A program made the position numbers and the translations under genes. Below, one piece after another: positions 20,520 through 56,067 of a stretch of 58,554 nt of DNA (the first letter of the stretch is position 1; each line of letters starts with the position of its first letter). Origin of the DNA: an uncultured Candidatus Saccharibacteria bacterium (GTDB lineage Bacteria > Patescibacteriota > Minisyncoccia > Sungbacterales > HO2-52-23); NCBI GenBank assembly GCA_964585475.1, contig CAZPDF010000007.1, positions 1 through 58,554 on the forward strand, in the 5' to 3' direction. Under the pieces are notes generated by a model, which had not been told where the DNA came from, searched no databases, and saw only the letters and a list, made by a program, of their open reading frames with translations.

Positions 20520-21116
20520 ATGCAAGCCATCAATCCAGTTATAAGAATTCTTATCACTTCGGATTTCTTTGTTCTCTCGGGAATCGGTTTTTTTAATCCG
20601 GTACTTGCCATTTTTGTTACTCAACAGGTGCAGGGAGGCGATGCCCAGGTCGCCGGTTTTGCCTGGGCAATTTATTTTGCCATGTGGATTGTCCAGATTC
20701 CCATCGGGAAGTATCTCGATAGAAATCACGGCGATATTGATGATTTTTGGTTTTTACTTACGGGCGCATTTTTTACTGCCGCAGTTCCTTTTTTATACCT
20801 TTTCGCGTCTTTGCCCTGGCACGTGTATCTTCTCCAGGCGCTCCTGGGACTCGGCCGCGGCATAAGTCTTCCGCCCTGGTATGCGCTCTTTACTAGAAGA
20901 ATTGATAAGGCCCATGAGGGGTACGAATGGGGGATGGAGAACGTAGTAGCTGGCATGGGGCTGGCACTCGCGGGGGCGCTGGCCGGGATTATTGTGAAGC
21001 GGTACGGATTTGAGGCGGCTTTTATTTTTGCCGGATTTCTTTCGCTCATCGGATCTTCCGCACTTATCTTTTTAAGGAGACATGCGTATCAGAAGGATTT
21101 TTTCCCCGCTCCATGA
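20520..21116 (+). CDS. Half-size (6-TM) MFS-like membrane protein
   Basis: Six TM helices, with GKYLDR in a loop. The stop overlaps the polX ATG (ATGA). Confidence 0.45.
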   Translation: MQAINPVIRILITSDFFVLSGIGFFNPVLAIFVTQQVQGGDAQVAGFAWAIYFAMWIVQIPIGKYLDRNHGDIDDFWFLLTGAFFTAAVPFLYLFASLPWHVYLLQALLGLGRGISLPPWYALFTRRIDKAHEGYEWGMENVVAGMGLALAGALAGIIVKRYGFEAAFIFAGFLSLIGSSALIFLRRHAYQKDFFPAP

Positions 21117-22894
21117 CCAACCAGGAAATTGCCAAAATTTTGTATGAGATGGCGGTTTTATATGATATGGAGGGTATTCAGTTCAAGCCCCGGGCCTACG
21201 AGAAGGCGGCCCTGGGGGCTGAAGCGCTCGATCAGGAAATAAAGGAAATTTACGGCAAAGGCGGGATAAAAGCCCTTGAAGAAATACCCGGAGTTGGAAG
21301 GGGGATCGCTTTTCATATCGAAGAGCTGTTAAAAAAAGGACACTTTGCCGAACACGATAGATTAAAAAAGAAAGTTCCCGTGAATATCTCGGAACTTACC
21401 GCGGTCGAGGGCGTGGGGCCGCGCATGGTAAAAGCGCTCTGGGAGAAATTAAAAATCCGCAACCTCGTTGATCTTGAGAAAGCGGCGCGCGCCGGGAAGA
21501 TCAGGAAGCTTGAGCGCTTTGGCGAGAAATCCGAGGAGAAAGTTTTAAAAGGGATCGACTTTTTGAAAAAATCCGGAGGCAGACAGATTCTTGGGCATGC
21601 TCTGCCGGATATAAGAAATCTTGAAAAAGTGATTAATTCTTTTCCGGAAGTGGAGCAAGCCATGGTTTGCGGTTCGGTAAGAAGGCGAAAGGAGACAATC
21701 GGAGATATTGATATACTCGCGATCTCAAGTAGGCCGGAGAAAGTAATGGAGCGATTCTTGGGCCTTCCTTTTATTGCGCATGTCTATGGACACGGATCCA
21801 CCAAAACTAATGTCCGTCTGAAAAACGGCTTGGATGCCGATATCCGAGTGGTGCCGGAAGAATCATTCGGCGCGGCAATAAATTATTTCACCGGATCCAA
21901 AGACCACAATATTGCGCTTCGCGAAATTGCGATAAGGAAGGGGTGGAAACTGAATGAGTACGGCCTTTTCCAAGGCGCAGACAGACGCGGACACGAAGGC
22001 AAGCACGGACCGACGCGGACAAAAGATATAATGATTGCTGGTAGGACGGAAGAAGAATTATATGAGAAACTCGGGCTTAGATATATAGAGCCGGAAATGC
22101 GGGAAAATGCGGGTGAGATAGAAGCGGCCCTTCGACAAGCTCAGGGCAAGCCCGGCGGATTGCCGAAACTAATTGGATATGATGACCTCAAGGGAGATTT
22201 ACAGGTCCAGACCGATTGGACCGATGGAGAGGATTCGATTGAGGTAATGGCGCATGCGGCGGAAAAGGCGGGGCTTGAGTATATAGTAATTACGGATCAC
22301 ACCAAATCTTTGGCGATGACCGGAGGATCGGATGAGAAAAAGTTGGCGAAACAAGGAGATTATATTGATAAACTCAACAGAAGCAAGAACTTCAAAATAA
22401 AAATTTTGAAAGGGGCGGAGGTAAATATCGGGAAAGACGGCTCTTTGGACATCGATGACGAGGCGCTCAAAAAATTAGATGTAGTCGGCGCATCGGTGCA
22501 TAGTCATTTCAATTTGTCGAGGGACGAACAAACCCGGCGCGTTATCCGCGCGATGGAAAATCCAAATGTCGATATCATTTTTCATTTGACCGGCCGCCTT
22601 ATTAACCGCCGTGAGCCGATTGACGTAGATATTGATGAGATTATTAAGGCAGCAAAGCACACTGGAACGATTCTGGAGATTAATGCTTTTCCAGACCGCG
22701 CGGATATCAAAGACGAATACATCAGAAAATGCGTGGATGCCGGAGTAAAAATGTCTATTGATTCCGACGCCCACTCCAAAGACCATTTCAAAATTCTGGA
22801 ATTCGGCATAGCGCAGGCGCGACGTGGGTGGGCGGAGAAGAAAGATATTATAAACGCTTGGCCGTTGGAGAAAATGCTGGAATTTTTGAAATGA
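21113..22894 (+). CDS. polX: Family X DNA polymerase with C-terminal PHP domain
   Basis: N-terminal NQEIAKILYEMAVLYDMEG..KPRAYEKAA, GSVRRRKETIGDIDIL palm motif, and a PHP domain (ITDHT..HSH..DSDAH). Confidence 0.85.
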   Translation: MTNQEIAKILYEMAVLYDMEGIQFKPRAYEKAALGAEALDQEIKEIYGKGGIKALEEIPGVGRGIAFHIEELLKKGHFAEHDRLKKKVPVNISELTAVEGVGPRMVKALWEKLKIRNLVDLEKAARAGKIRKLERFGEKSEEKVLKGIDFLKKSGGRQILGHALPDIRNLEKVINSFPEVEQAMVCGSVRRRKETIGDIDILAISSRPEKVMERFLGLPFIAHVYGHGSTKTNVRLKNGLDADIRVVPEESFGAAINYFTGSKDHNIALREIAIRKGWKLNEYGLFQGADRRGHEGKHGPTRTKDIMIAGRTEEELYEKLGLRYIEPEMRENAGEIEAALRQAQGKPGGLPKLIGYDDLKGDLQVQTDWTDGEDSIEVMAHAAEKAGLEYIVITDHTKSLAMTGGSDEKKLAKQGDYIDKLNRSKNFKIKILKGAEVNIGKDGSLDIDDEALKKLDVVGASVHSHFNLSRDEQTRRVIRAMENPNVDIIFHLTGRLINRREPIDVDIDEIIKAAKHTGTILEINAFPDRADIKDEYIRKCVDAGVKMSIDSDAHSKDHFKILEFGIAQARRGWAEKKDIINAWPLEKMLEFLK

Positions 22895-26811: not shown

Positions 26812-27327
26812 CTATTTTTTGGAAATTACCGCTATAATTCCCTGCGGGAATCTTTTGGGCGGCGCCTCAGTGTTAATTTCCATCGGTATCATTCGCAAGA
26901 ACTCATTGAATTTCTGGAAGGCAAGCGCGGTGTGGGCCTTTTCCCGGCCTCGTAGCCGCATGTCAATCCGTACCTTATCGCCTGCCCCAAGCCATCCTTC
27001 GGCTTTTTGGGCATAGCGCCTTAAGTCGTGTTGCCCGGTGGTGAACCCGATTCTTATGCCCTTTAGTTCAACCTCTTTTTGTTTTTTCCCGTGCTCGCGT
27101 TCGCCTTTCTCGCGCTGGTACTTGAATTTTCCGAAATCCATGATCTTGCAGACCGGTGGGGTTACGGTAGGAGCAATCTCGATTAAATCAAGGCCCCTTT
27201 CTTGGGCAATACGGATCGCCTCGGGGGTTTCCATAACCCCGAGGTTTTGCCCCTTCTCATCCACCACGCGGATAGGCGAGATACGGATGTATTGATTTAT
27301 GCGATAACGTCTTTGGATATGTTTTAT
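26812..27327 (-). CDS. infC: Translation initiation factor IF-3, non-AUG start
   Basis: INQYIRISPIRVVDEKGQNLGV..PPVCKIMDFGKFKYQ. The frame is open upstream of the track GTG to ATA codons at 27298-27300 and 27325-27327. The exact start is uncertain. Confidence 0.8.
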   Translation of the reverse strand: MKHIQRRYRINQYIRISPIRVVDEKGQNLGVMETPEAIRIAQERGLDLIEIAPTVTPPVCKIMDFGKFKYQREKGEREHGKKQKEVELKGIRIGFTTGQHDLRRYAQKAEGWLGAGDKVRIDMRLRGREKAHTALAFQKFNEFLRMIPMEINTEAPPKRFPQGIIAVISKK

Positions 27328-30297: not shown

Positions 30298-31935
30298 ATG
30301 ATACGAGAGGAGATAAAAAACCAGATACTTTCGGCGATCAAGAATACTTTTGGGGAGAGAGAACCCCCAGGATTTTCTATTGAAATTCCAGAAAACCCCG
30401 AGCACGGAGATTATGCGACGAATGCGGCAATGATTTTAGCGAAAGCGTTAAAGAAAAAGCCGATAGAAATTGCGTCGGCACTAGCCGAAGAACTAAGAAT
30501 TAAGAATAAAGAATTAAGGACCGAAACGGTGCCACCCGGTTTTATAAATTTTTGGTTGTCGCGGGGAGCACTTAATCGCGAATTTGCCGAAATTCTTAAA
30601 AAAGACAAAAAATACGGCCGCGGAGAGAAAAAGAAAGAAAAAATTCAGGTTGAATTTATTTCGGCAAATCCGACGGGACCTCCTACTCTTGCGAATGGCC
30701 GAGGCGGGTTTTTGGGCGATGTTTTGGCGAATGTGCTTGAATTCTCTGGATACGGTGTGGAGAGGGAATATTATGTGAATGATACAGGAAACCAGATTTT
30801 AACGTTTGGGAAATCGTTTCTCGCGGCGGCGGGCCTTATCCCGGAAGAAGAAAATTTCTATAAAGGTGCGTATGTAAAAAAGTGGGCAAAAGCTCATCGG
30901 GTGCTCGTTAAAAAATGCAAAAACGATCCGATGCGGCTCGGAAGGGAGGCGGCCCGCGTTTTTTTGAAGGATATTAAGGCCGTCATAAAAAAGGCGGGAA
31001 TCGGGTTTGACCGCTTTACTTCGGAGTATAATCACCTCCACAAAAAAAAATTCGTCAAAAAAGCGTTAGATCACCTCCGCAGAACAGGGGCGGTTTATAA
31101 AAAAGACGGCGCGGTGTGGCTAAAAACCACCAGTTTTGGCGATGATAAGGATCGGGTTCTTGTAACAAGCGATGATTTCGCCACCTATTTTTTGTCAGAC
31201 GCGGGGCACTATCTGGAAACCAAAAGCCGCGGATTTGATGCAAAAATTAATATTCTGGGGCCGGATCACTACGGATACGTAAAAAGGATTCAGGCCGCGG
31301 CAAAGCTGCTTGGTCTTAAAAAATCAGAGGTTGTCGTCACTCAGGCAGTAAGGATCGTTCGTGGGGGAAAAGAAATGAAAATGTCCAAGCGTCGCGGAGA
31401 CTTTCTCGCGTTTGAGGAACTCATTAAGGAAGTCGGTTCTGACGCTGCGCGCTATTTTTTCCTGGAAAAGTCTCCGGATACGCATATGGACTTTGATCTG
31501 GATCTAGCGAAAGAAAGGTCGGTGAAGAACCCGGTTTATTATATACAATATGCGCACGCGCGCATCGCTTCTATTTTTCGTAAAGCATCTTCCTTGCGTC
31601 ATCCTGAGGGAGCGAAGCGACCGAAGGATCTAAAGAGATCCTTCGCTTCGCTCAGGATGACTCTGTTGAAGGAAAAGGAAGAGCTGGATTTGATTAAAAA
31701 ATTGATACAATTCCCCGAAGTCGTGGAAGACACCGCGCGAGATTATCAAGTTCATCGCCTCACGCGCTATGCTTACGAGCTTGCGCGAGTTTTTCATAAC
31801 TTCTACGAAAAGCACCGGGTAATTACAGAGGATAAAGAATTGACGCAGGCGCGTCTCGCCCTTGTCAAAGCCGCCCAGATTGTGCTACAACAAGTTTTAG
31901 GTCTTCTAGGCATCTCAGCGCCAGAAAGGATGTAG
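30298..31935 (+). CDS. argS: Arginine--tRNA ligase, with a degenerate HIGH motif and an in-frame repeat insertion
   Basis: SANPTGP..NDTGNQI, MKMSKRRGD, and the C-terminal DALR-type anticodon-binding region (YYIQYAHARI). Confidence 0.85.
   Translation: MIREEIKNQILSAIKNTFGEREPPGFSIEIPENPEHGDYATNAAMILAKALKKKPIEIASALAEELRIKNKELRTETVPPGFINFWLSRGALNREFAEILKKDKKYGRGEKKKEKIQVEFISANPTGPPTLANGRGGFLGDVLANVLEFSGYGVEREYYVNDTGNQILTFGKSFLAAAGLIPEEENFYKGAYVKKWAKAHRVLVKKCKNDPMRLGREAARVFLKDIKAVIKKAGIGFDRFTSEYNHLHKKKFVKKALDHLRRTGAVYKKDGAVWLKTTSFGDDKDRVLVTSDDFATYFLSDAGHYLETKSRGFDAKINILGPDHYGYVKRIQAAAKLLGLKKSEVVVTQAVRIVRGGKEMKMSKRRGDFLAFEELIKEVGSDAARYFFLEKSPDTHMDFDLDLAKERSVKNPVYYIQYAHARIASIFRKASSLRHPEGAKRPKDLKRSFASLRMTLLKEKEELDLIKKLIQFPEVVEDTARDYQVHRLTRYAYELARVFHNFYEKHRVITEDKELTQARLALVKAAQIVLQQVLGLLGISAPERM
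31598..31661. repeat. GTCATCCTGA...TCAGGATGAC palindromic element inside argS
   Basis: GTCATCCTGAGGGAGCGAAGCGACCGAAGGATC / GATCCTTCGCTTCGCTCAGGATGAC. Translated as HPEGAKRPKDLKRSFASLRMT. Confidence 0.8.
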
Positions 31936-32051: not shown

Positions 32052-32696
32052 ATGAAAAGGCCGATAATTTTTGCGGGACTTTTGTTCCTAGGCGCTTTCG
32101 AGCCCTGCGGCGATGCCTTAGCCGGGGGAAAACAGCCGTTTCCCATTATCGAGAATGTGCCGCACGTATGGGCGGGGAAGATGATTCATGAGACCACGCC
32201 CGGAGATGACCCTTCCAGTCTTTTTATACTCCGATATTACGAAGCAGCCGGAGGAGAAAATTGGGGCCCCTTCGGAAGCTGTATTTTGCTTCGCGAAGTT
32301 CCCGAGATTGGGTGTCTCGTCATGGTGTGGGGGATCCAGCGGGATCGCGACGGCGCATACGATTTTTCGACGGCTACATTTTCTCACCGGATCGATGATA
32401 CGCAATGGTTTGTTGCCCCCCCAGCGCAGAGCATACGTCCCTATCTCGGAGACATGCGAGCGGTTTCCGTCATAGCATACCGTACTTTTTTCAAGGAACA
32501 TCCGAAGCTTGGCGGCCGCATTAAGGAAGTGGTTGAGCACCACGAAGTTATCCGCTATGCGCGTCGCACCATTCAGGAAGTGACGTTCAAAATGTTTGAT
32601 CCTGCCGGAAAAGAGATGGCGTACTGGTTTACGCTAATTCTCAATCCTCCGCGAGTGATTGAAAAAGAAGAGAACATGATCGTTTCCCCGCCCTAA
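32052..32696 (+). CDS. Hypothetical secreted protein
   Basis: Signal peptide, no recognised motif. Confidence 0.45.
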   Translation: MKRPIIFAGLLFLGAFEPCGDALAGGKQPFPIIENVPHVWAGKMIHETTPGDDPSSLFILRYYEAAGGENWGPFGSCILLREVPEIGCLVMVWGIQRDRDGAYDFSTATFSHRIDDTQWFVAPPAQSIRPYLGDMRAVSVIAYRTFFKEHPKLGGRIKEVVEHHEVIRYARRTIQEVTFKMFDPAGKEMAYWFTLILNPPRVIEKEENMIVSPP

Positions 32697-32749: not shown

Positions 32750-35700
32750 ATGCAGGGAAAATCAGCATTCAATTTGCCGTCCCTCGAAGAGAAGATCCTC
32801 GGATTTTGGGAGGAAAATAAGATTTTTGAAAAATCTCTTGAAAGGACGAAAAAAGGGAAACGATTTGTCTTTTTTGAGGGCCCCCCTACGGCCAACGGCC
32901 TTCCGCACATCGGACATGCGCTCTCCCGTGCGTTCAAGGATATCATCCTCCGCTATAAAACCATGCGGGGTTTTTATGTTCCTCGCAAAGCAGGGTGGGA
33001 TACGCACGGGCTTCCGGTCGAGATAGAGGTTGAAAAAATACTCGGATTCAAATCCAAACGGGATATCGAAAAATACGGCATTGCTAGATTCAATCAAAAA
33101 GCTAAAGAATCGGTCTGGCGCTATAAGGACGAGTGGGAGAAATCCACGAAACGTCTGGGTTTTTGGCTGGACCTGGAACACCCCTACATTACTTACGATA
33201 CCGCTTATATTGAAACGCTTTGGTGGATTATTAAAGAAATATGGAAGAAAGGCTTGCTTTATCAGGATTTCAAAGTTATCCCTTGGTGCCCGCGCTGTCA
33301 AACCGGACTTTCTTCCCACGAAGTCGGGCTGGGTTACAAAAAGATAAAAGAGGATTCTATATATGTAAAGCTTAAGCTAAAAAACAAGACCAATGAATAT
33401 CTGCTTATTTGGACTACTACCCCTTGGACCTTGCCGGCGAATGTGGCTGTAGCCCTTAATCCGCAGACGGAATATACGAAGTATAAGATAAAAGGCGAAT
33501 ACTTATGGTCCGCCCGCACCCCTCCTTACGAAACGCCAGAAAAAATTTCGGTAGTTGAGAAGGCCTCCGGCAGATCTCTTTTGGGGATCAAGTATGAGCC
33601 GCTTTTCCGCGTGCCGAAAGAATGTTCTTTGGGCGGCGTTCCGGAATTCGCTACTATTGCCGGCGAATTTATTTCGCTTGAGGAGGGAACCGGCATGGTA
33701 CATATTGCGCCGGCTTTTGGTGACGAGGATATGGAAACGGCCAAGCGCATGTGGCGCGGCTCTTATCCGATTCTTCACACGGTGAACACTGACGGCACGA
33801 TGAAGAAGGGCGTAATTGGCGAAAAGAAATTCGTCAAAGACGCAGACAAACTCATCATCGAGGATTTGAAGCGCCGCGGCCTTCTTTACGCGGCCGAACC
33901 CTATGAGCATGATTATCCTTTCTGCTGGCGGTGTTCCACGCCCCTGCTTTATTTTGCCAAGACCGCCTGGTGGATAAAGATGCGCGACGTCAAGAAAAAA
34001 TTAATAGAAAACAACGGCCGGATCAACTGGATTCCGTCGCACTTAAAAACCGGGCGTTTCGGAGAGTTTTTGGCCGATATTCGCGATTGGGCATTCTCGC
34101 GCGAGCGCTTCTGGGGAACGCCGCTGCCTGTGTGGCGATGTGATAAGTGCGACCACCAGGAAGTAATAGGAGGGAGGGAGGAGTTGGCGCGGCGCGCGGG
34201 TCCTGCCCGCAATCGCTTTTTTTTAATGCGCCACGGCGAAGCTCTCTCGAACGTTAAAAATATAGTATCGTATGCGCCCGATGGCAAGTATCGCGAAACC
34301 CTGCGGGGTCTTGTCCAGGACGAGCGAGCCGCAAAAAAGCTGAAAAAGATAGGCATTGATTTTATTTACACTTCCGATGTTCTGCGGACCAAACAAACCG
34401 CAGAAATTGTAGGGGGAGTTCTGGGCCTAAAACCGCGTATTGATACTCGGCTCCACGAACTCAACGCGGGAGATTTGGAGGGGAGGCACCCCGATGAATA
34501 CCATAGTTATTTTTCTTTCGAGAGCGAGAAATTTACCAAGCGTCCGCCAGGCGGCGAAAATCTCACCGAGGTCCGGAAGCGGATGCTCGAAGTTGTCGAG
34601 GAACTGGAGCAGAAGCACTCCGGCAAGACCATTCTTTTGATCAGTCACGAGCATCCGCTGTGGCTGCTTTATGCCGGTTCCATCGGTTTGACGAACGAAG
34701 AAACGTTGGCTCTGCGAAGCGGCAGTCGGAGGGAGGAATTCATTCATTTTGCTGAAGTTATGGAGTTGCCATATGTCAGGTTGCCCCGAGATGAAAACGG
34801 GGAGGTGGATCTCCATCGTCCGTATGCGGATTCTTTCAAGATTCCTTGCGGCCGGTGCGACGGCTTAATGAAAAGAGTTACGGAGGTGATAGACGCTTGG
34901 TTTGATTCCGGGTCCATGCCCTTCGCCCAAGCCCACCGTCCGTTCGGGGACCATTTACCATTTACTAGTTACCAGTCCCAATATCCCGCCGACTACATTT
35001 GCGAGGGCGTTGATCAGACCCGGGGGTGGTTTTATACCTTGCTTGCGGTTGCTACGCTTCTCGGCAAGCCCTCCCCCTATAAGAATGTGATATCTCTTGG
35101 CCATGTCCTTGATAAAAGCGGCCAGAAAATGTCTAAATCTAAAGGAAACGTGGTTAACCCCGGCGAAATCATTAAAAAATACGGCGCCGATACCCTGCGC
35201 TGGTATTTCTATACAATAAATTCCCCGGGGGAACCCAAACGTTTTGATGAGAAGGACCTTATGGGTAAGCTTCGTGGGTTTTTGATGACTTTTTGGAACT
35301 GTTTTGTGCTTTTTGATACATATGTAGATAAAATTCGAAACCTGCCCCGCACCGTGCCGGAGGCCCTGGTGCGGGGTTCGAAATTCCCCGGCCTCGCCCG
35401 AGCTCTGCCGAGGGCGGGCGAAATTCGAAATTCTAAAAACGTTCTTGATAGATGGGTGCTTGCGAAGCTCGAGATACTAGAGAGAGACGTTACCATGAAA
35501 CTTGATGCGTATGATATTACCGGGGCGGGAAGAGTAATTGAGGAGTTTGTCATAAATGATTTCTCGCAGTGGTATCTGCGCAGATCCCGCAGGAGATTTC
35601 AGCGCCCAGAATCAAAAGAAATATTTGCTGAAGCCGCCGAAACTACTGCGCAGGTACTTTATCAGCTCTTGCGCATTTCCGCTCCGTTTGTTCCGTTTTT

Positions 35701-36388
35701 GGCGGAAACAATTTATCAGGAGCTTAGGAAGAAACTGAAATTGAAAGAAACGAGTATTCATCTTGTTGGGTGGCCAATTCTCTTGTGTGTCATTCCGAGG
35801 CGAAAGCCGAGGAATCTCACGAGATCCTTCGCCCCGTATAGCTCCCCGCGGGTGATTATACGGGGCTTCGCTCCGCTCAGGATGACGGCGGGGGAGAAGA
35901 AAATTTTGGGCAACATGGAGGAAGTTAGAAAGATTGTCGCGGACGCGTTGAGGTTGCGTGCGGCCGCCGAAATCAAGGTTCGTCAGCCGCTCGCTTCGCT
36001 ACAAATTCGAAATCCAAAATTCGAAATCCGAAACGAAAAGGAGCTGTTAGATCTGATCCGAGACGAAGTGAATGTTAAAAAAGTTGCGTTCGGAGTTGAG
36101 TTTAAGTTGGAGACGACCTTAACGCCGGAATTAAAAGAAGAGGGAGTTGCGCGCGAGATCATCCGTAATATTCAGGAGATGCGTCGTGGCGGCGGTTTTC
36201 ACCCGGCCGATTTGATTTTCATCCAAATCGCGGGAAGCGAGGCGACCGGGACGGTTATCGAGAGATGGCAGCAGTTTATTCAAAAAGAAACAAATTCGCG
36301 AAAAGTTATCGTTGGCGGGAAAAAAATTTTTAAGATCGAGCGCGAAATAATTATTGACGGGTTGCAACTTTGGATAGGAATTCGGTAG
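32750..36388 (+). CDS. ileS: Isoleucine--tRNA ligase carrying an inserted histidine-phosphatase domain and repeat insertions
   Basis: PPTANGLPHIGHA (HIGH), KMSKSKGN, WCPRCQT, and CDKC..CGRC zinc knuckles. 1212 aa. Confidence 0.9.
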   Translation: MQGKSAFNLPSLEEKILGFWEENKIFEKSLERTKKGKRFVFFEGPPTANGLPHIGHALSRAFKDIILRYKTMRGFYVPRKAGWDTHGLPVEIEVEKILGFKSKRDIEKYGIARFNQKAKESVWRYKDEWEKSTKRLGFWLDLEHPYITYDTAYIETLWWIIKEIWKKGLLYQDFKVIPWCPRCQTGLSSHEVGLGYKKIKEDSIYVKLKLKNKTNEYLLIWTTTPWTLPANVAVALNPQTEYTKYKIKGEYLWSARTPPYETPEKISVVEKASGRSLLGIKYEPLFRVPKECSLGGVPEFATIAGEFISLEEGTGMVHIAPAFGDEDMETAKRMWRGSYPILHTVNTDGTMKKGVIGEKKFVKDADKLIIEDLKRRGLLYAAEPYEHDYPFCWRCSTPLLYFAKTAWWIKMRDVKKKLIENNGRINWIPSHLKTGRFGEFLADIRDWAFSRERFWGTPLPVWRCDKCDHQEVIGGREELARRAGPARNRFFLMRHGEALSNVKNIVSYAPDGKYRETLRGLVQDERAAKKLKKIGIDFIYTSDVLRTKQTAEIVGGVLGLKPRIDTRLHELNAGDLEGRHPDEYHSYFSFESEKFTKRPPGGENLTEVRKRMLEVVEELEQKHSGKTILLISHEHPLWLLYAGSIGLTNEETLALRSGSRREEFIHFAEVMELPYVRLPRDENGEVDLHRPYADSFKIPCGRCDGLMKRVTEVIDAWFDSGSMPFAQAHRPFGDHLPFTSYQSQYPADYICEGVDQTRGWFYTLLAVATLLGKPSPYKNVISLGHVLDKSGQKMSKSKGNVVNPGEIIKKYGADTLRWYFYTINSPGEPKRFDEKDLMGKLRGFLMTFWNCFVLFDTYVDKIRNLPRTVPEALVRGSKFPGLARALPRAGEIRNSKNVLDRWVLAKLEILERDVTMKLDAYDITGAGRVIEEFVINDFSQWYLRRSRRRFQRPESKEIFAEAAETTAQVLYQLLRISAPFVPFLAETIYQELRKKLKLKETSIHLVGWPILLCVIPRRKPRNLTRSFAPYSSPRVIIRGFAPLRMTAGEKKILGNMEEVRKIVADALRLRAAAEIKVRQPLASLQIRNPKFEIRNEKELLDLIRDEVNVKKVAFGVEFKLETTLTPELKEEGVAREIIRNIQEMRRGGGFHPADLIFIQIAGSEATGTVIERWQQFIQKETNSRKVIVGGKKIFKIEREIIIDGLQLWIGIR
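35789..35886. repeat. GTCATTCCGA...TCAGGATGAC palindromic element inside ileS
   Basis: Translated as VIPRRKPRNLTRSFAPYSSPRVIIRGFAPLRMT, between SIHLVGWP and the MEEVRKIV helix. Confidence 0.75.
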
Positions 36389-36465: not shown

Positions 36466-36548
36466 GTTTGAACGCGATTTACCCAGTTAGAAATTTATTT
36501 CAGTAAAACCCCTAACTATTTAAGAGACCGTAGAAGAACCCATCTTTA

Positions 36549-36644
36549 GTCATCCTGAACAAAGTGAAGGATCTCTTGGAACAGCACGGATAGATTCTTC
36601 GCTGCGTTCAGAATGACATTCCTGGGGTTACTCGCTACCAGTTC
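36549..36644. repeat. GTCATCCTGA...TCAGAATGAC element plus ACTCGCTACCAGTTC tail (intergenic)
   Basis: Arms at 36549 and 36608. Tail at 36630-36644. Confidence 0.75.
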
Positions 36645-39930: not shown

Positions 39931-41391
39931 ATGACGAATGTTAATTTCGACAAATTTCTTACACAGGTTGGGGAGATCGGCTTCATAAATAAAGTTGTTT
40001 CTTCCCTGGTTTATGCCGAAGGCCTCCCCGGAGCCAAGCCGGAAGAGCTTGTAATTTTCGAATCGGGGGAACTCGGAGAGGTCACCGCCCTTACGGAATC
40101 GAACGTCGAGATTCTCGGTTTTTCCAAAAATCCGGTGCGGGTTGGATCTAGGGTGGTACGCACCAATAAGGCGCTTGAGGTGCCGGTGGGCGAGGAACTT
40201 TTGGGCAGAGTTTTGAATCCGCTCGGGCGCTCGATTGACCCGTCAAGTCCCGTCCCGCCGATGAAGGAGATGCGCCCCATTGAGATACTTCCTCCGGGGA
40301 TCGGAAAGCGCGCGCGGATAAAAACCCCCTGTCATACCGGTGTTGCTCTGGCAGATTTAATGATTCCTCTGGGTAAGGGCCAGCGTGAGCTTGTGATGGG
40401 AGATCAGAAAACCGGCAAATCACGGTTTTTGCTCCGTTCTCTCCTTACCCAAGTTAGGCAGGGAGCTGTTGGCGTCTATGCGGTTATCGGCAAAGGGCAG
40501 GTGGCCGTGAAGCAGATCGAAGAATCTTTGCGGCAGCTGGGGATCATGGATCGTACCGTCATTGTAACGTCCATGTCCGATGACGCGTCAGGAATGATTT
40601 TTTTGACGCCCTATACCGCGATGACCATTGCCGAATATTTCCGGGACGCCGGTCGCGATGTTCTCCTAGTGCTGGATGATCTTTCGGTCCACGCCAAGGC
40701 CTATCGGGAAATTGCGCTTCTCGGCCGGAGGTTTCCCGGCCGCAATTCCTACCCGGGCGATATTTTCTACACCCATGCGCGGCTTCTCGAAAGGGCTGGA
40801 AATTTTATCACCCCGCTAGGCGAGCGAGCCATCACCTGTTTGCCCGTGGTCGAAACCACACAGGGCGACCTCACGGGCTTCATTCAAACCAACATCATGG
40901 CCATGACCGACGGTCATATTTTCTTTGACCACACTTTGTTTGCGGAAGGGCGGCGGCCGGCTATAGACCCCTTTCTTTCGGTTACCCGCGTCGGCCGGCA
41001 AACCCAAACGCCTTTGCAGCGCGAAGTCGGACGCACCCTGATTACTTTTTTACGGGAGGTGGCGGGTTTGCATAATTTCGCGAGTTTCGGAGCTGAACTC
41101 GGAGAACGCATCCGTTCCTCACTTGAGAAAGAGAAACGGATCATGCAGTTTTTTGATCAGACCGCCTATGATTCGATTCCTGCGAATTTGCAACTTGTCC
41201 TCTTTGGTCTTATCTGGGGAGATTTTTGGCAGGAGAAGAACCTCGAAGAAGTACGCCTGGCGATCCAGAAAACCATTTTTATGTATGAGACACGGCTGGA
41301 GGTACGGAGGAGGGTTGACGGTACGATTTCTCTTTGCGACTCCACTGAATCACTGATCAACCATATAGGAGATCTAGATTTTTTTAAATAA
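39931..41391 (+). CDS. atpA: F1 ATPase alpha subunit
   Basis: GDQKTGKS P-loop, RFPGRNSYPGDIFYTHARLLERA, GRRPAIDPFLSVTRVG. Confidence 0.85.
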   Translation: MTNVNFDKFLTQVGEIGFINKVVSSLVYAEGLPGAKPEELVIFESGELGEVTALTESNVEILGFSKNPVRVGSRVVRTNKALEVPVGEELLGRVLNPLGRSIDPSSPVPPMKEMRPIEILPPGIGKRARIKTPCHTGVALADLMIPLGKGQRELVMGDQKTGKSRFLLRSLLTQVRQGAVGVYAVIGKGQVAVKQIEESLRQLGIMDRTVIVTSMSDDASGMIFLTPYTAMTIAEYFRDAGRDVLLVLDDLSVHAKAYREIALLGRRFPGRNSYPGDIFYTHARLLERAGNFITPLGERAITCLPVVETTQGDLTGFIQTNIMAMTDGHIFFDHTLFAEGRRPAIDPFLSVTRVGRQTQTPLQREVGRTLITFLREVAGLHNFASFGAELGERIRSSLEKEKRIMQFFDQTAYDSIPANLQLVLFGLIWGDFWQEKNLEEVRLAIQKTIFMYETRLEVRRRVDGTISLCDSTESLINHIGDLDFFK

Positions 41392-41402
41392 ACCAGTCAA
41401 AC

Positions 41403-42275
41403 ATGATTAACCCAAAAGTAATTGCCGTCGATCTGGCCCGTCTCCAAACTTTCAAAATGATCATGGAAACCTACGAGACTATTGCCGCTTCCTCGATGCG
41501 CCGCATCCGACATTCGGTTTTGCAGAACCGGGAGTACCACCTGGGACTCAATAAATTATTCCAGGAGGCGAAGCGCGCCTATGAGGGCGAGATGCGCGAA
41601 CTTATGGAACGGAAAAAAATTAGCGGCATAGCCGGGCTCTCGCTTATCAAACGGAACGCCCGCACGGCCTATCTTCTCCTTTCGGCCAACACCGGGCTTT
41701 ATGGCGACATCATAAACCGAACCTTTTTCTTTTTTTTGGAGCGGCTGCGGCAAGGGAATGCGGATGCCGCTATTGTCGGAAGGGCGGGTGAAGCCATGTT
41801 GGAGGCGGTATCCCCCGCGACCCCGCGCCTTTATTTCGAGTTTCCGGATACCCACATAGCACCGAAAAATTTAAAAATAATTACCCAGCATCTTAGTCAG
41901 TATGAAAAAGTAGTGGTGTTTTACGGGGAATTTAAAAGCATTTTGACGCAATCTCCGACCGCGACCAACATTTCCGGCGATATATACTTGGCCGGAGACG
42001 GAGGGGATTTGGGCGCCCGATATATTTTTGAGCCGTCGCTCGAAACCATCGCTATTTTCTTTGAAACCGAGATTTTTGCTTCGCTGCTGGAGGGAACTTT
42101 CCATGAATCGCGTCTGGCTAAACTTGCCTCGCGCCTCGTCCTACTTGATCGCGCTACATCGAATATTGATAATGAGTTCCGGCGCGTTTGGTCTGAGCGC
42201 GGTAAGCTGCGGCATCGCCTAGCCAACAAGAAACAGCTTGATGCAGTTAGCGGTATATCCCTTTGGGGAAGATAG
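41403..42275 (+). CDS. atpG: F1 ATPase gamma subunit
   Basis: Operon position, 290 aa, and conserved N- and C-terminal helices (..SRLAKLASRL..AT.NIDNE...KLRHRLANKKQLD). Confidence 0.75.
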   Translation: MINPKVIAVDLARLQTFKMIMETYETIAASSMRRIRHSVLQNREYHLGLNKLFQEAKRAYEGEMRELMERKKISGIAGLSLIKRNARTAYLLLSANTGLYGDIINRTFFFFLERLRQGNADAAIVGRAGEAMLEAVSPATPRLYFEFPDTHIAPKNLKIITQHLSQYEKVVVFYGEFKSILTQSPTATNISGDIYLAGDGGDLGARYIFEPSLETIAIFFETEIFASLLEGTFHESRLAKLASRLVLLDRATSNIDNEFRRVWSERGKLRHRLANKKQLDAVSGISLWGR

Positions 42276-42345
42276 CGTGTGGGATTTCTATCGGCGTCCG
42301 ATCGGCGTACCTATCAGCGTAAGATCAGCGGAGTACCGCAGATAA

Positions 42346-43788
<1,443 letters not shown>

Positions 43789-43807: not shown

Positions 43808-43980
43808 GAACTGGTAGCGAGTATATTCCTAAATGTCATTCTGAGCGCAGCGAAGAATCCCCTCATTTACGGCAAGAGCTCCTTCACGGAGTTTACCCTG
43901 AGATTCTTCACTTCGTTCAGAATGACTCACGAAGGGCTCAGGACGACAACGGGGAAAAGCGCTTTACTCGCCACCAGTTC
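43808..43980. repeat. Composite palindromic element with outer GAACTGGTAGCGAGT / ACTCGCCACCAGTTC repeats
   Basis: Inner arms GTCATTCTGA at 43835, TCAGAATGAC at 43917 and TCAGGACGAC at 43937. Lies between atpD and atpC. Confidence 0.75.
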
Positions 43981-44282: not shown

Positions 44283-47200
44283 ATGAGTTTCTCTAGCAAA
44301 AAACCGCAAAAGGATGGGGTGACGCGACGCTCGCTGTGGCTGTTGGGTTGTTTTCTCGCGGCCTTAGTTCTTACGGCAGGTCTTATAGGTGTATGGTCGG
44401 CTGAGGCCAGCAGTCTTGAGGATGCGCAAGATCTTACCGTCCTTTCGTTGTCATCCTCGCGGCCACTTTTTGCGGCTTTTCTTGACGACGCCGGAACATT
44501 TATTAGAAGTTTATTCCGCCGCCTGATCCCTTCGCGCGCCGTTACGGCAGATTTGGATGGTCAGGCCATTCGTCAAAAAAATAGCGGGCTTCTCGCGCCT
44601 TCCACTCCGCGCTCGACGGTTCGCATAAATGTTCCGAGCGAATTCAAAACCGAAGTCACCGTGCGCGGGCTTCTAAGAGGAACCGACATTGATTTGGGTT
44701 CGGGCACCATAATCGCCTCCAATGTTATTTATGGCGTCACGGCCGGAGACGGCATCGTTATTACCGGCGGCCAGCGGCCCGCGGTGTCTTCCGCTTTTTG
44801 GAGGAGGCGCGGGGACGTTATTGTTACCCGGGATCCCGGTTTGTCGCTTGAAGTTACCGGCGGAGTTACTATCGGCACCACCACCGGCTCCCGGCTTACT
44901 TTTGCGGGGCCGAGCGTCACCCGATACTTAGGAACCAATCTTACTCAATATAATAATTTTTCGACGACTACCATTTTAAATTCCGCGGCCAACGCCTGGA
45001 GCATTGCGACGTCCGCCACCGCCACTCCGATTTTGAGCATTGATACCCGTGGCGCCGGCTCGGTAAAGATTACCGGGTCCTTGGGTATTGGTACGACTTC
45101 TCTCGGTGCGGTATTGGCGGTTCAACAGCAAGATGCTTCCACCACCGCCTTCCGGCTCATTGGATTATCCGAGCGGCTGGGACGGCTCTTTGAAATTATT
45201 GATGCATCCAGCACTCCTCGTTTGGTTATTGACGGTTCGGGTCGGCTTGGCATTGGAACAACCTCGCCTTCAAGCCTGCTTGCCGTCAGCGGCAGCTCAA
45301 CTTTTACGGGTCCGCTTAGCGCGAGCGCGAGCGCCTATCTTGCCACGGCCGGCGGGAGCGTGGGCGTAGGAACCGTAAATCCCACGAGTCTTTTGAGCGT
45401 GCGGGGAACGCTGGATGTTTCGCTTGACGCGAAATTCGGCACAAGCCCTTTAATCCCCGTTATTAGTTGCGGCGGATCTGGAGTGCTTGAAACGGATGGA
45501 GAGGGAAGAATTACTTGCGGCTCGGACGCGGTTGGCGGAGGGGGCGTGGGCGGGTCCGGCGCAACCGGACAGGTTACTTTTTGGGCGAGTAGCGGTTCCC
45601 TGACCGGCAATTCCAATCTCATATTTGATTCAAGCACCGGACGACTCGGTATCGGCACTTCGTCTCCGGCTCAATCGCTCTCCGTAGGCGGCAATACATA
45701 TATAGTAGGGGGACTCGGCGTAGGGGTGGCGACAACTACTGCCGGGGCATTTGAGGTTTCCGGTCAGGCGTCCATCGGAGGCGCCCTGTCTCTTGCGGGC
45801 AACCTTGCGGTATCCGGTAGCGCGACCTCAACCTTTATATCGGGTCTCTCCGTCGGACTCTTAAACATTTCCTCCACCACCGCCAGTTCCACTTTCGCCA
45901 GCGGTATAAATCTTAATAACGGATGTTTTGCTATAAACGGCGGGTGTGTTGCCGGTGGCGCAACCGTCACTGGTGCCGGAGCTTCAGGGCAAGTTACTTT
46001 CTGGACCGGCGTCTCTTCCATTTCCGGGGACAACGCTTTTTTCTGGGATAGTTCCGCGGGGCGCCTCGGCCTAGGCACCACGTCTCCCAATTCGCTCTTG
46101 AATCTATATGGCACCTCGACTCTGGCCACTTTCCAGTCATTCATAAATTCCACGTCGGCTTTCAGAATCTTGAATGCGGCCTCCTCCTCGGTGTTTACCG
46201 TAGACACCTCCAATGGTTCCACCACCATTTCCGGAGTATTCAATGCCAACGGCGTAGGTACTTCCACTTTCGGAGGTGGACTTTCCGCGAATCTTTTGAA
46301 TGTCAGATCCACCTCGGCCAGTTCCACCTTTGGCAACGGCATTAGGTTATTGAACGGATGCTTTGAACTTACGGACGGCACCTGTGCGGTATCGAGCGCC
46401 GGAGCTGCGGCCTCATCCGGATGGACAGATGACGGAACCATAGTGCGTTTGAACCAAGCCGGAGACCAGGTATCCATAGGAAACTCGAGCCCTCTTTCCC
46501 CGGCCGTACTTTCTATTTACGCCACCACCTCCACTGCGGTTCCCTTGATCGCGCAGGCAGCGGCCAACCAGACCGCGGACCTGGTCCGCATCCAGAATTC
46601 CGGAGGAGCGAACTTGATCGTGGCCGACTACCAAGGCCGCGTATCCATTGGCACTTCTTCGGCGGTATCGCTATTCAACCTCTACGGCACCTCGACTCTG
46701 GCCACTTTCCAGTCATTCATAAATTCCACCTCGGCCTTCAGAATCTTGAATGCGGCCTCCTCCTCGGTGTTTACCGTAGACACCTCCAATGGTTCCACCA
46801 CCATTTCCGGAGTATTCAATGCCAACGGCGTAGGTACTTCCACTTTCGGAGGTGGACTTTCCGCGAATCTTTTGAATGTCAGATCCACCTCGGCCAGTTC
46901 CACCTTTGGAAATGGAATCATCCTTTCGAGTGGCTGCTTCAGAACCGTGAGCGGGGATTGCGCGGCCACGGGTTCGACCACCATTGATCAGGGTACTGCC
47001 AACCGTGTCACGTATTACTCGACCGCGTCCACTCTTGATTCAGCCAACTACCTTACCACCGACATTACCAACTCGCGCCTGGGAATCGGCACCACCACAC
47101 CGGGCACCACCTTAGGAGTTACCGGAGACGCGGTTATTACCGGAGTCCTTACCATGCGTCAATTCAACGCCACCTCGACCAGCGCAACTTCAACCATCCA

Positions 47201-50200
47201 GGGATTTCTTGACGTTTTGGGCACCGGATCAAACTCCACCTCCACTTACGCCTCTAACCTTTGGGTCAAAGGAGGACTTCAAATCGGAACCGGTTCTGTA
47301 CTCATTGGAAATAATTTCCTGAATTTTAACCAGTCAGCCTCCACTTCGCTTGCAGGCGCGGTCAATGCGTGGAACATCGGAGGAGCAAATCTTCTCTCGA
47401 TTGACGCTTTTAATAATCGTTTGGGTCTTGCTACCCAAACTCCCGCGTCTTTGCTATCTATCGCCGGAACCTCGACGATTGCCTTGGCCGGATCTTCGGG
47501 CCTTGGCAACATCGGCCTCTTGAACATCCAGCAAAACTCAATCGGAACCCCTGCCATGATTTACGGCCGAAGATTCACGGACGACTGGGTAACTACTGCG
47601 GCCACCAATACCGCAACCTCCACCTTTTTCTTAAGATTTGATGATACGAGAAATCAAGGGGTCTCTAACCTCATTACCGGCACCGCTACTACTTCCGGAT
47701 CACTTCTTTTCGGAGTTGATGTGAGGGGGGCGCTTACCATCAACCATGGATCTTCATCCGCGGTCGTGGTTGGTAAGCTTGGGATCGGCTCTCTCCCCCA
47801 ATCCATTGTTGTTTCCGGCAGATATGCCTATGTGGTGGATCAGGGAAGCGCTGATCTGAAAGTTATTGATGTTTCAAACCCGAGCGCTCCGGTTACAGTC
47901 GGTTCCCTTGGTATCGGCGATCTCCCCACATCCATCGCGGTCTCCGGCCGCTACGCCTACGTGGTGGATTATGGAAGCGATGACTTCAAAGTGATTGACG
48001 TTTCCAACCCATCCGCTCCGGTTAGAGTCGGTTCCCTTGACATTGGTACTACCCCCTGGTCCATCGCGGTCTCCGGCAGATATGCCTATGTGGTGGATCA
48101 GGTAAGCGTTGATTTGAAAGTGATTGACGTTTCCAACCCATCCGCTCCGGTTAGAGTCGGTTCCCTTGGTATAGGCGCTAACCCCACATCCATCGCGGTC
48201 TCCGGCCGCTACGCCTACGTGGTAGATTCGGGAAGCGATGACTTGAAAGTGATTGACGTTTCCAATCCGTCGGCTCCGGTAACTGTGGGAACCCTTGGTA
48301 TCGGCAATCTCCCCACATCCATCGCGGTCTCCGGCAGATATGCCTATGTGGTGGATCGGGGAAGCCAAGACCTTAGGGTGATTGACGTTTCCAACCCATC
48401 CGCTCCGGTTAGAGTCGGTTCCCTTGGTATAGGCGCTAACCCCACATCCATCGCGGTCTCCGGCCGCTACGCCTACGTGGTAGATTCGGGAAGCGATGAC
48501 TTGAAAGTGATTGACGTTTCCAATCCGTCGGCTCCGGTAACTGTGGGAACCCTTGGTATCGGCGATCTCCCCACATCCATCGCGGTCTCCGGCCGCTACG
48601 CCTACGTGTTAGATTCGGGAAGCGATGACTTGAAAGTGATTGACGTTTCCGGGGCAGAGGTGAATGCGTTAATGGCGCATTCCCTTGAGGCCGGATCTTT
48701 GCAGGTTCGGGATGATATTACCGCGCGAGGATTGAATCTTTCAGGAGGTCTTACTGTGGGCCCCAATGGCCTTCTCTCGCAGGGTACGGTCGGCATTTCT
48801 TTGCCTCTTGCCACAACCACTTTCATCAGCACCTCCACCTCCATTCTTACTCTCACTCACGCCACCGGAACATTTGCCGGAACCGGCCTTCTCATGGATT
48901 TTGCTACCTCCTCTGCCACCACCTCACCAACTAGAGGTGCAGGAACATTCACCGGAAACTTTCTTGAATTCAAGAATCGCGGCATCTCTAGATTCGTGGT
49001 GGACAAACTCGGGCGCCTCGCCATAGGCACGACAACTCCGGCCTGGTCCTTACAAGTCGCATCCAACACCCAGACCTATCTTACCCTGACGGCAAATGAT
49101 GCCAGCGCCAACCTCAAACACTGGACCCTTTCTTCCCAAGGAGGCAACTTCTACATATCCTCCTCCTCCGACGCCTACGCCACCAGTTCTACCGCTAGAC
49201 TCACCCTGTTAAGCTCCGGCCTCGTAGGAGTTGCCACCTCTTCCCCTTCCACCAACTTTTCCGTACTCGGAAATATCTATGCCACCGGAGGCCTTGGAGT
49301 AGGAAGATCCACCACCACCGCCGGAGTCCTGGATGTCGCAGGATCTGCCACCTCGACCTTTGTGGGAAACTTCGGGATTAACATGACTGGAGGGTGTTAT
49401 GCGCTTAACGGATCGTGCGTGGGAGGAGGCGGCGGAGTTTCGGGATCGGGAGCGACAAATAAGGTAACCTATTGGGATACTTCGAGCACCATTTCTTCGA
49501 ACGCCCTCTTTTCCTGGGATAACTCAAATGTTCGATTTGGTGTGGGCACGACCTCTCCCGGCGCACGTCTTTCCGTTGCCGGAGGGGGTTCCGCAAGCGG
49601 CATGTCAAACGCCATACTCTATAGCTTGGGCAACTTTATCTACGCTTCTTCCTCCACCTCCACTATCCCCAATCTTGCCCCATACGCTTTCTCTATTGCC
49701 ACCTCCACCACTGCCCAACCCATTTTCTCCATTGACACCCGTGGGGCCAGGGGCACCTCGTCTTTCCTGGGAGGATTTTCCATTGACGACGGAGCCGTGT
49801 TATATGACACCGCCACCGGCACTCTCTCGGTTGACGCTTTGAATACGGGACCGATGTCTTTTGACACGGATGCGGGAATGGTTTCCTGGATTGATATGCC
49901 CAGTTCAACCACGACGGCCGGTATTGCCATGAGTTATTCGGCTATGGTTGACTCAACGCAAGTTCTCACTATCTACGCCACCACCACTGCTTCCGGGAAC
50001 ATCACTTTCGGCTCGGTCGGCATCGGCACAACTACTCCTGGCGCAGCGCTGGACGTTCTTGGGGCGCTTTGCGTGGATGATGCAACTCCAGCCTGTGCGA
50101 ATGCGGCACGCGCCCCAGGCACTATTTACGCCGTGGCCACCACAATCACTGGCATTGACGTTGCCGAGCAGTATCCGACGACTGATACATCTCTTGAGGC

Positions 50201-51348: not shown

Positions 51349-51873
51349 ATGGCAACAGTCCAAAGATTCGAGGATTTAATCGCCTGGCAAAAAGCGCGGG
51401 AACTTACCCGGGAAATATACAAAAGTTTAAGCGGTGAAACGTTTAAACGTTTAAACCTGCCGCCGGATTACGGTTTTATAGATCAAATCCGGCGAGCTTC
51501 GGTTTCCGTGATGTCTAATATCGCGGAAGGATTTGAACGAGGCACGCGCGCCGAGTTAATCAACTATTTATTTATCGCCAAGGGCTCCTGCGGAGAAGTG
51601 CGTGCGCAACTTTACGTTGCGTTGGACGCGGGATACTTAAACGTTGAAATGTTTAAACGTTTAATTGGTTTAAGCGAGGACTGCTCGGTTTTGATTTATC
51701 GTTTCATTCAGAGCATCAAGCAATCGGGGATCGCAGGACACCAATTCAAAAAAGAAAAATCCAAATCCCAACTTGAGCGCGAAGAATTCGACCAGTATCT
51801 TAAAAAGCATCTCGAAGAAGTCAAAACAAATCCTAGCGCCAAATTCGATATATCGCGTTTCGAAAGAAAATGA
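51349..51873 (+). CDS. Four-helix-bundle protein (23S rRNA intervening-sequence protein / Avd-like family)
   Basis: [58 protein letters not shown]. Confidence 0.75.
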
Positions 51874-54017: not shown

Positions 54018-54056
54018 TATCCTCATTATTCCCTTTAATCCCTTTTCTTCCCCTTT

Positions 54057-54728
54057 ATGGTCATAAAAGTATCAAAAAATCCATACGGATACAGGAATCT
54101 ATTGGTTTACGAGAAAGCCGAGGAATTGCAGAAAGCATGCTCCGAGCTGACCCATCAATTCCCCAAGACAAAGACGCTCGTCGCCTTGGGCGATCAGATG
54201 GATCGCTCGGCACGCTCGACTAAACAGAATATTGCCGAGGGATGGAAGCGGAATTTGACCCACGAGTATTATCAGTTTCTCGGCTACTCGATCGCCTCCA
54301 ATGCGGAGCTTGAGGAGGATTGTAACGATATTATTAAGGGAATGTACCCGGAGTTAATGGGTATAAAGGGGATAATGGGGGAAAGGGGAGAAGGGGTAAA
54401 CGAAAGAGGAGAAATGGGGATTGACGAGGTTGAACGGATCCCTTTTTATCCCATTAATCCCCATTTGCCTCCCATGGTTGGGCTGAAACTCCGGGCCAAG
54501 GAACTTAACTTTCTGCTTGACCGTCTGCAAAAGTCGCTCGCGCAAAAAATGGCAAGCGAAGGAACCCTGTCCGAGCGGGACAAACTCCAGAGAGCCCGCG
54601 AGAAGGAAAAAGAACGCTATAAACAGGATTTTGAACTGATGGACGCCATAAGAAAAAGCGATCCCATAGCTTTTGAAAAACATTATAAAAGCGAATACGA
54701 ACGTTTGAAGAAAATATTAAATACTTAA
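54057..54728 (+). CDS. Four-helix-bundle (Avd-like) protein with an internal word-hairpin insertion and C-terminal extension
   Basis: YRNLLVYEKAEELQKA..QMDRSARSTKQNIAEGWKR..FLGYSIASNAELEED. Confidence 0.65.
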   Translation: MVIKVSKNPYGYRNLLVYEKAEELQKACSELTHQFPKTKTLVALGDQMDRSARSTKQNIAEGWKRNLTHEYYQFLGYSIASNAELEEDCNDIIKGMYPELMGIKGIMGERGEGVNERGEMGIDEVERIPFYPINPHLPPMVGLKLRAKELNFLLDRLQKSLAQKMASEGTLSERDKLQRAREKEKERYKQDFELMDAIRKSDPIAFEKHYKSEYERLKKILNT

Positions 54729-54783
54729 ACGGACTATCGAAGTCGGACTTCACCAGAATTATAAAATAACTTATAAAAATAAT

Positions 54784-55470: not shown

Positions 55471-55495
55471 ATTCAAGATTTAAGATTCACGATTC

Positions 55496-55879: not shown

Positions 55880-55922
55880 AGGGAATATATTCTTAAATCA
55901 TGAATCTTGAATCGTGTATCAA

Positions 55923-56067
55923 ATGAAACAGAACATCATTACAACCTCATTCCTGGTTTTCGCATTTATCTTCATTTTCAGCGGTGAAGCTAGCGCCGGT
56001 GCTCTCATCAACCGCGCGCCCACATCTCTGGGTTTGATTTCGGGTTTGGTCGGCTACTGGTCTTTTT
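55923..56067 (+). pseudogene. Decapitated LamG gene 5' cassette 1 (signal peptide to GLVGYWSF)
   Basis: [30 protein letters not shown], then interrupted by the hairpin element at 56068. Confidence 0.65.

Follow-up and report, generated by a model that had tools for sequence, protein, structure and literature searches.

Type-2 isoleucyl-tRNA synthetases (IleRS), the eukaryote-like and mupirocin-resistant bacterial form exemplified by the Thermus thermophilus enzyme (1ILE) and by P. megaterium IleRS2 (8C8U/8C8V), consist of a Rossmann fold, the connective peptides CP1 (editing), CP2 and CP3, the last with a zinc knuckle, an anticodon-binding domain and a C-terminal DUF5915 domain. Nesting of a domain in a loop of the Rossmann fold is familiar in class Ia synthetases from the CP1 editing domain and from other connective-peptide insertions, such as the leucine-specific domain of leucyl-tRNA synthetase (LeuRS), and in these enzymes more than one catalytic site is within reach of the tRNA 3' end. 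IleRS with an acquired catalytic domain of unrelated chemistry is likewise known, namely the family with an N-acetyltransferase domain (NF040702, ileS_w_GNAT), and a His_Phos_1 domain fused to a nucleic-acid enzyme has a precedent in the RNase H / acid phosphatase of the Rv2228c type (NF005567). In the present study, we analyzed a contig of 58,554 nucleotides (CAZPDF010000007.1 of assembly GCA_964585475.1, hereafter the window) from an uncultured Candidatus Saccharibacteria bacterium placed by GTDB in the Sungbacterales. The IleRS encoded in this window shares the co-linear core of the type-2 enzymes and differs from them in that its CP3 zinc knuckle is interrupted by a histidine-phosphatase domain of 193 aa, at a place where the T. 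thermophilus enzyme has about six residues.

The host gene, ileS, occupies positions 32750..36388 of the + strand as one uninterrupted open reading frame (ORF) of 1212 aa. Its product matched the NCBIfam model TIGR00392 ileS with 819.8 bits (cut-off 621.4) and 1ILE with an E-value of 3e-232 (phmmer), and the Pfam matches were tRNA-synt_1 in two parts, Anticodon_1 and DUF5915, with His_Phos_1 between the two parts of the catalytic domain. The window IleRS is an intact type-2 enzyme: the HIGH signature motif, read from the sequence in its canonical form (32906..32917, + strand, aa 53-56), the KMSKS signature motif (35126..35140, + strand, aa 793-797; kept in 120/120 sequences), the CP1 editing domain, which matches the solved editing domains 1WK8 (E 3e-30) and 1UE0 (E 5e-24), and the anticodon-binding domain are all present. 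The AlphaFold2 (AF2) model of aa 1-1010 had a pLDDT of 87.3 and a pTM of 0.82 and matched 1ILE with a TM(target) of 0.86 (Foldseek); disorder in this model was limited to two segments, aa 737-739 and aa 866-891. Among the 120 closest IleRS relatives, 107 have GxHH instead of HIGH and just 7 have HxGH; the swapped GxHH motif has been tied to mupirocin hyper-resistance (PMC10485003).

By comparison with two insert-free relatives (P0086 and P0095), the nested histidine-phosphatase (His_Phos_1) domain extends over 34202..34780 of the + strand (aa 485-677) and is flanked by '...ELARRAG' and 'LPRDENGEVDLHRPY'; these relatives have 33 and 39 residues across a span that takes 231 in the window protein. 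In the alignment with 1ILE, window residues 8-484 correspond to 9-481 and residues 686-1009 to 488-787, so that about 200 residues replace about six. The first CxxC of the zinc knuckle (C464 and C467; 34139..34150, + strand), which corresponds to the 'CQAC' just before residue 481 of the T. thermophilus enzyme, lies upstream of the insert, and the second (C700 and C703; 34847..34858, + strand) lies downstream; both cysteines of each pair are invariant. A zinc-binding motif is present in CP3 of the T. thermophilus enzyme (PMC7191050), and the CP2-CP3 linker is part of the pocket for the CCA end of tRNA and reveromycin A (PMC7955072). Because the insert separates the invariant CxxC pairs and published structures assign this segment to CP3, the phosphatase is nested in the body of the synthetase that carries catalysis, between the two CxxC halves that make up its CP3 zinc knuckle.

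The sequence-only reading of this stretch had proposed a domain insertion into the catalytic body of IleRS at 34208-34800 (aa 487-683). The insertion was borne out, with the CP3 zinc knuckle as its specific host site, and only its boundaries had to be refined to those given above. All of the peptides on which that proposal was based were found in the ORF, PVWRCDKCDHQEVIGGREEL at aa 460-479 and EVDLHRPYADSF..VIDAWFDSGSMPF at aa 685-725 on the two sides, and RNRFFLMRHGEALSN (aa 487-501) and LLISHEHPL (aa 629-637) in the insert. Sizing of the insertion by alignment, which had been suggested as a check, gave a segment without counterpart in solved IleRS structures and in some close relatives. An ordinary connective peptide is ruled out, since the solved IleRS structures as well as P0086 and P0095 are without the segment. 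No Hint/intein or homing-endonuclease family was found among the Pfam matches of the whole IleRS protein; His_Phos_1 accounts for the whole insert, and an intein or mobile element is therefore ruled out as well.

The insert matched PF00300 (His_Phos_1) at aa 491-652 with 119.5 bits and an E-value of 1.9e-34 in the whole protein (gathering cut-off 21.7), well outside anything that chance would give, and the fragment named in the sequence-only reading matched it alone with an E-value of 5.7e-36. Its assignment to branch 1 of the histidine phosphatases was thus upheld. The insert is co-linear from the first to the last residue with stand-alone histidine phosphatases of about 190 aa. As a separate domain it was modeled by AF2 with a pLDDT of 86 and a pTM of 0.84, and the best Foldseek matches were PspA (4IJ6), PhoE (1H2E), CobC (6NRU) and GpgP (4PZ9) with TM values of 0.65-0.75, those to PspA and PhoE (E 1e-12) being 0.69-0.75, which answers in the affirmative the question of whether it folds independently as a histidine phosphatase. 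By size, the insert falls into the PhoE/PspA/CobC class, and it represents an entire small histidine phosphatase of branch 1.

Residue conservation was counted in 118 insert-bearing IleRS, which are 48-63% identical overall. In the RHG motif (34229..34237, + strand), R494 and the predicted nucleophile H495 are each conserved in 118/118 sequences and G496 in 115/118. The predicted second phosphate-binding arginine, R546, in an S-x3-R-x3-T motif (34385..34387, + strand), is kept in 117/118, and the predicted second catalytic histidine, H633, in the SH motif (34646..34648, + strand), in 118/118. The predicted general acid E570 (34457..34459, + strand), at a position which we take to be equivalent to E83 of PhoE and E89 of dPGM, is E in 83 and D in 35 of the sequences and is always acidic; E603 and R611 are each found in 118/118. 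Judged from this conservation, the residues for a phospho-histidine mechanism are all present and under strong purifying selection: H495 would act as the nucleophile, R494, R546 and H633 would form the phosphate cage, and E570 would serve as the acid. Such a pattern would be the signature of a working active site, and we infer phosphatase activity from it.

The insert belongs to the superfamily and to no characterized subfamily, because all of the equivalog models score well below their cut-offs. The values were 93 against a cut-off of 225 for the archaeal dPGM model (NF038349 dPGM_arch), 21.8 against 81.7 for the dPGM model TIGR01258 (fragment), 59.6 against 350 for PspA, 69.1 against 162.9 for CobC and 31.4 against 74.5 for SixA. 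A true dPGM, PspA, CobC or SixA is ruled out by these scores, and the earlier description of the insert as phosphoglycerate-mutase-like holds at the superfamily level and fails for dPGM proper. The described small branch-1 phosphatases PhoE/YhfR (1H2E, 1EBB), PspA (4IJ5/4IJ6), CobC (6NRU, 6E4B) and GpgP Rv2419c (4PZ9) have the same fold, size of about 190 aa and catalytic residues as the insert; however, they are only 22-28% identical to it and are free-standing, whereas the insert and its relatives are nested or operon-coupled. The fusion of the Rv2228c type is end to end and has another partner enzyme, and its model NF005567 gave 72 bits with the insert (cut-off 326). Similarly, the window protein is not a member of NF040702 (280 bits, cut-off 1999), the added domain being different. 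In contrast to CP1, which is universal and hydrolyses mis-acylated tRNA, the insert is lineage-restricted, is a predicted phosphatase and also occurs as a separate gene. The PADLOC profiles of known anti-phage defence proteins gave no match for the insert or its stand-alone homologues, except for one insignificant match (E 0.0045), and a component of such a defence system was rejected on this basis.

A segment of 226-237 residues was found at the same place in 117 of the 119 best IleRS homologues, the two exceptions being P0086 and P0095. The homologues came from NCBI, JGI, ENA and Logan and bear the names Sungbacteria, Nealsonbacteria, Wildermuthbacteria and Parcubacteria; the same architecture was present on more than 100 independent contigs. 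An artefact of assembly or gene calling is ruled out by the single in-frame ORF and by the 117/119 homologues from four independent data sources. In a scan of one genome per GTDB species, at least 520 species encode a relative. The best 80 loci nearly all carry labels of the Patescibacteria type (Yonath-, Lloyd-, Nomura-, Kaiser-, Taylor-, Azam-, Vogel-, Staskawicz-, Magasanik- and Berkelbacteria, Paceibacterota and others), the only odd label being 'Spirochaetia' (L019). The domain is nested in IleRS in 73 of these 80 loci and is a separate gene upstream of ileS in the other 7. A survey of its phylogenetic spread, as recommended in the sequence-only reading, therefore finds the insert widespread in IleRS of the candidate phyla radiation (CPR). 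At a further, Spirochaeta-labelled IleRS locus (L104 1501-7638), the tblastn match extends across 6.1 kb, roughly double the usual length of the gene, which could reflect an insertion, an intein or a duplication.

The closest free-standing homologues of the insert have about 190 aa and are 40-48% identical to it. The gene order in the retrieved contexts was argS - phosphatase - ileS - recO, and the phosphatase gene abuts or overlaps ileS. In the window, argS (30298..31935, + strand) is the upstream neighbor of ileS, in the same order as in loci L001 and L003-L007. Comparison with L001 and L004 showed that the slot of the stand-alone phosphatase gene of other lineages is occupied here by an unrelated ORF of 214 aa (32052..32696, + strand), which had no Pfam match. 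Neighbor-joining trees were built for the phosphatase and for the core of IleRS and were poorly resolved; one main stand-alone clade lies outside the nested clade, two stand-alone and two loss cases lie inside it, and L087 is incongruent. With about 190 columns, such distance trees have too little power to order the upstream-gene and insertion events. In L003 (5211-8093), the ileS beside a stand-alone phosphatase is split into two ORFs (330 and 554 aa); the near-identical L004 and L005 have a single ileS of 972 aa, and the split is probably a frameshift or an assembly error. At L048 (541-1371), a second, more distant His_Phos-like ORF is located about 2 kb upstream of an IleRS with the nested domain. 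A tandem double phosphatase gene with a third, partial copy was found directly upstream of an archaeal-type tyrS (L251 2081-4890), and a GNAT acetyltransferase is encoded near it.

Exhaustive searching with a profile yielded 398 cluster representatives (E <= 1e-30); domains were mapped on the best 150, and insertion sites were located by alignment after masking of the phosphatase. Tandem pairs occupy the CP3 site in P0207, P0263, P0266 and P0291, and a second CP3 position, after the second CxxC, is used in P0200 and P0207. Two further sites are the loop after WFDSG (site B, around window aa 735-741; P0267, P0221 and P0200) and the start of the anticodon-binding domain (site C, around window aa 860-895; P0196 and P0221). 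Sites B and C coincide with the two sole disordered loops of the AF2 model of the window protein, and this predicted disorder fits insertion into permissive loops. The window protein itself has a specific extra loop of about 20 residues (..VPEALVRGSKFPGLARALPRAGE..; aa 866-891, nt 35345-35422), predicted to be disordered, at exactly site C, which bears a phosphatase in other lineages. All of the complete copies examined in multi-copy proteins retain R494, H495, R546, E570 and H633; in one copy of P0200, Q replaces E603 and R611.

The domain is not confined to IleRS. P0167, the top-scoring match, is a fragment of valyl-tRNA synthetase (ValRS; 410.8 bits for valS versus 199.4 for ileS) with four copies. 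Among the 120 best ValRS relatives of P0167, the domain was present in 71, as a single copy in 58, as two copies in 11, and as three and four copies in one protein each. These domain-bearing ValRS contain Val_tRNA-synt_C and are named Gracilibacteria or Peregrinibacteria. Their copies are at positions equivalent to CP3 and CP2 (proteins P0317-P0434; for example, L253 5001-8270), and in a poorly resolved distance tree the 86 ValRS-borne domains all fall into a single clade. Thus, the nested IleRS domain pictured in the sequence-only reading is correct as far as it goes and is incomplete, as the upstream gene, the other loops, the tandem copies and ValRS also occur.

Because the physical coupling is repeated in so many forms (nested sites, tandem copies, ValRS and the upstream gene), a functional tie of the phosphatase to class Ia synthetases is suggested. 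On the sequence evidence, we consider the chances about even that these proteins are bifunctional synthetase-phosphatases, in which the phosphatase is functionally coupled, is not a random passenger, and in an accessory role removes a phosphomonoester met at the synthetase. The preferred target would be either an adenosine nucleotide or a 2'/3'-phosphate or pyrophosphate that blocks the acceptor end of the tRNA. This choice of a phosphomonoester substrate is a hypothesis and not a finding, and we hold it with considerable doubt. It is proposed because IleRS and ValRS both pass the 3' end of the tRNA from one catalytic domain to another, and because CP2 and CP3 surround the mouth of the synthetic site and the CP2-CP3 linker lines the CCA pocket. 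Similarly doubtful is the idea that the tRNA acceptor end finds a third catalytic station in the nested phosphatase or, in an alternative version, that the phosphatase strips phosphorylation by toxin kinases from the synthetase. Such a station would provide built-in repair or quality control, in which a 2'/3'-phosphate or pyrophosphate block, left by ribotoxins or by enzymes of the toxSAS/CapRel type, would be cleared from tRNA before charging. On this view, the activity would have been captured time and again in CPR, at a minimum of four loops, in one to four copies, in IleRS and ValRS, or as an operon partner.

Several observations weigh against a coupled function. The structural neighbors of the insert are broad-specificity or small-metabolite phosphatases, and we know of no enzyme of the histidine-phosphatase superfamily that acts on RNA ends. 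The sites are scattered over CP2, CP3, the second half of the Rossmann fold and the beginning of the anticodon-binding domain, which speaks against a single fixed geometry to the tRNA 3' end. On a contig of 439,541 bp with both synthetase genes, IleRS has two copies of the domain and ValRS none, and a Peribacteria genome probably likewise has it in IleRS but not in ValRS; presence on only one of the two is compatible with a general role in trans. In P0086 and P0095, which are close relatives, the insert is absent and no phosphatase gene lies next to ileS. Because these relatives have lost the domain, we infer that it is dispensable and that the coupling is accessory, not essential. Finally, a related tandem double phosphatase (P0314; L254 5001-6344) is located in a sugar-utilization neighborhood with no synthetase. 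The neighbors of P0314, on a contig of 1.25 Mb, include AraC regulators, glycoside hydrolases and an MFS (major facilitator superfamily) transporter; this protein is possibly a non-CPR relative that hints at an ancestral metabolic role.

Alternatively, the insert may be a passenger, that is, a housekeeping metabolite phosphatase (PhoE/PspA-like or an archaeal-type dPGM) without mechanistic link to aminoacylation. It would then have been fused to, or co-transcribed with, an essential and constitutive gene because this favors its expression or stability where the genome is minimal. We regard this as a serious rival, if on the unlikely side. Small-metabolite phosphatases provide the closest structures and family models, the best NCBIfam match being the archaeal dPGM; the domain is inserted at scattered places, in loops that are permissive and disordered; the related tandem protein stands in a sugar-utilization context; the domain can be lost; and just one of IleRS and ValRS bears it in the genomes checked. 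However, a passenger should be met in many kinds of host gene, and the classified fusions among the top 150 representatives are IleRS or ValRS, while gene adjacency in the same set is to ileS and once to tyrS. Chance would hardly explain independent capture that recurred at a minimum of four sites and in a pair of paralogous synthetases, and the scores for the dPGM, PspA and CobC equivalogs are far below their cut-offs. A mere structural or RNA-binding appendage without catalysis, or a mis-assembly or gene-calling error, is effectively refuted, the catalytic residues being 99-100% conserved over 118 sequences at 48-63% identity and the gene being a single in-frame ORF with counterparts in NCBI, JGI, ENA and Logan data on over 100 independent contigs.

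Two further explanations make the synthetase itself the object of protection. The domain might be a protein phosphatase that lifts inhibitory phosphorylation of the synthetase, for example by toxin kinases of the HipA/HipT type. Members of branch 1 such as SixA, Sts-1 and PGAM5 are protein phosphatases, HipA/HipT phosphorylate GltX and TrpS, only class I synthetases are involved here (IleRS, ValRS and one adjacency to the gene for tyrosyl-tRNA synthetase), and the insertion sites surround the catalytic body. We nevertheless regard self-protection as improbable: no kinase was seen near the locus, IleRS and ValRS are to our knowledge not targets of HipA, two to four tandem copies would be needless for a role in cis, and the SixA score is far below its cut-off. 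Still less probable, in our view, is the destruction by the domain of a phosphorylated natural inhibitor or adenylate mimic aimed at the Ile and Val synthetases. We know of no IleRS or ValRS inhibitor that bears a phosphomonoester, and the known adenylate mimics are phosphoramidate or sulfamoyl diesters, unfit for histidine-phosphatase chemistry; the lack of a PADLOC match is a further point against it. Nevertheless, resistance as an accessory trait would be in keeping with the multi-copy arrays and the patchy loss, and NCBI has curated an IleRS family with an added GNAT domain (NF040702). Slight support also comes from GxHH in 107/120 relatives, as its link with mupirocin hyper-resistance (PMC10485003) is a hallmark of inhibitor pressure.

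The remainder of the window contains other elements. A family of short palindromic repeats (AGATyCTTCGCTkCGyTCAGrATGAC) is scattered in it, with copies at 31636-31661 (in argS), 35861-35886 (in ileS, aa ~1038-1046), 36548-36644, 4281-4460, 43808-43947 and 51026-51074. The copies in argS (..RSFASLRMT..) and ileS (..RGFAPLRMT..) are in frame, and that in ileS is part of a window-specific extra segment (aa ~1012-1048) not found in the homologues. The repeat looks like an element of the REP (repetitive extragenic palindromic) or MITE (miniature inverted-repeat transposable element) kind that is tolerated in essential genes, as are the Rickettsia palindromic elements. Upstream of ileS are the genes for PolX (21113-22894) and IF3 (26812-27267, minus strand), as well as those for a ZIP transporter and a P-type ATPase, and the order PolX/IF3/argS/ileS agrees with that in related CPR loci; downstream is a cluster for the alpha, gamma and beta subunits of ATP synthase (39931-43788). 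An ORF of 2339 aa (44283-51302) contains six tandem repeats of 129 nt at 47769-48713, and the genes at 51870-58540 contain repeated units of about 600-670 nt that encode Laminin_G_3/concanavalin-like domains; the products of both regions are probably large surface proteins.

We found no description of a phosphatase-IleRS architecture in the literature, in a search that did not cover subscription-only papers, and the recent literature on the evolution and structure of IleRS (including PMC10485003) makes no mention of such an insert. Both parent families are known; what is new is the CPR-wide nesting and operon coupling of the phosphatase with IleRS and ValRS. Such proteins have been public for years under generic names, and because they are named only 'class I tRNA ligase family protein', caution in annotation is advisable; the nested phosphatase is at the same time a clean lineage marker for CPR IleRS and ValRS. 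The recurrent coupling as an upstream gene, at several sites, in tandem arrays and in two paralogous hosts is a natural Rosetta-stone experiment, and it suggests that the two enzymes cooperate. If true, a further and unrelated active site within the catalytic body of both IleRS and ValRS, conserved in hundreds of CPR species, would give the translation apparatus an accessory activity that is new. Should the substrate be tRNA or the synthetase, this would be a new mechanism of translation repair or immunity in episymbionts with minimal genomes; if it is a metabolite, the insert would be a striking case of domain nesting as a strategy of gene economy.

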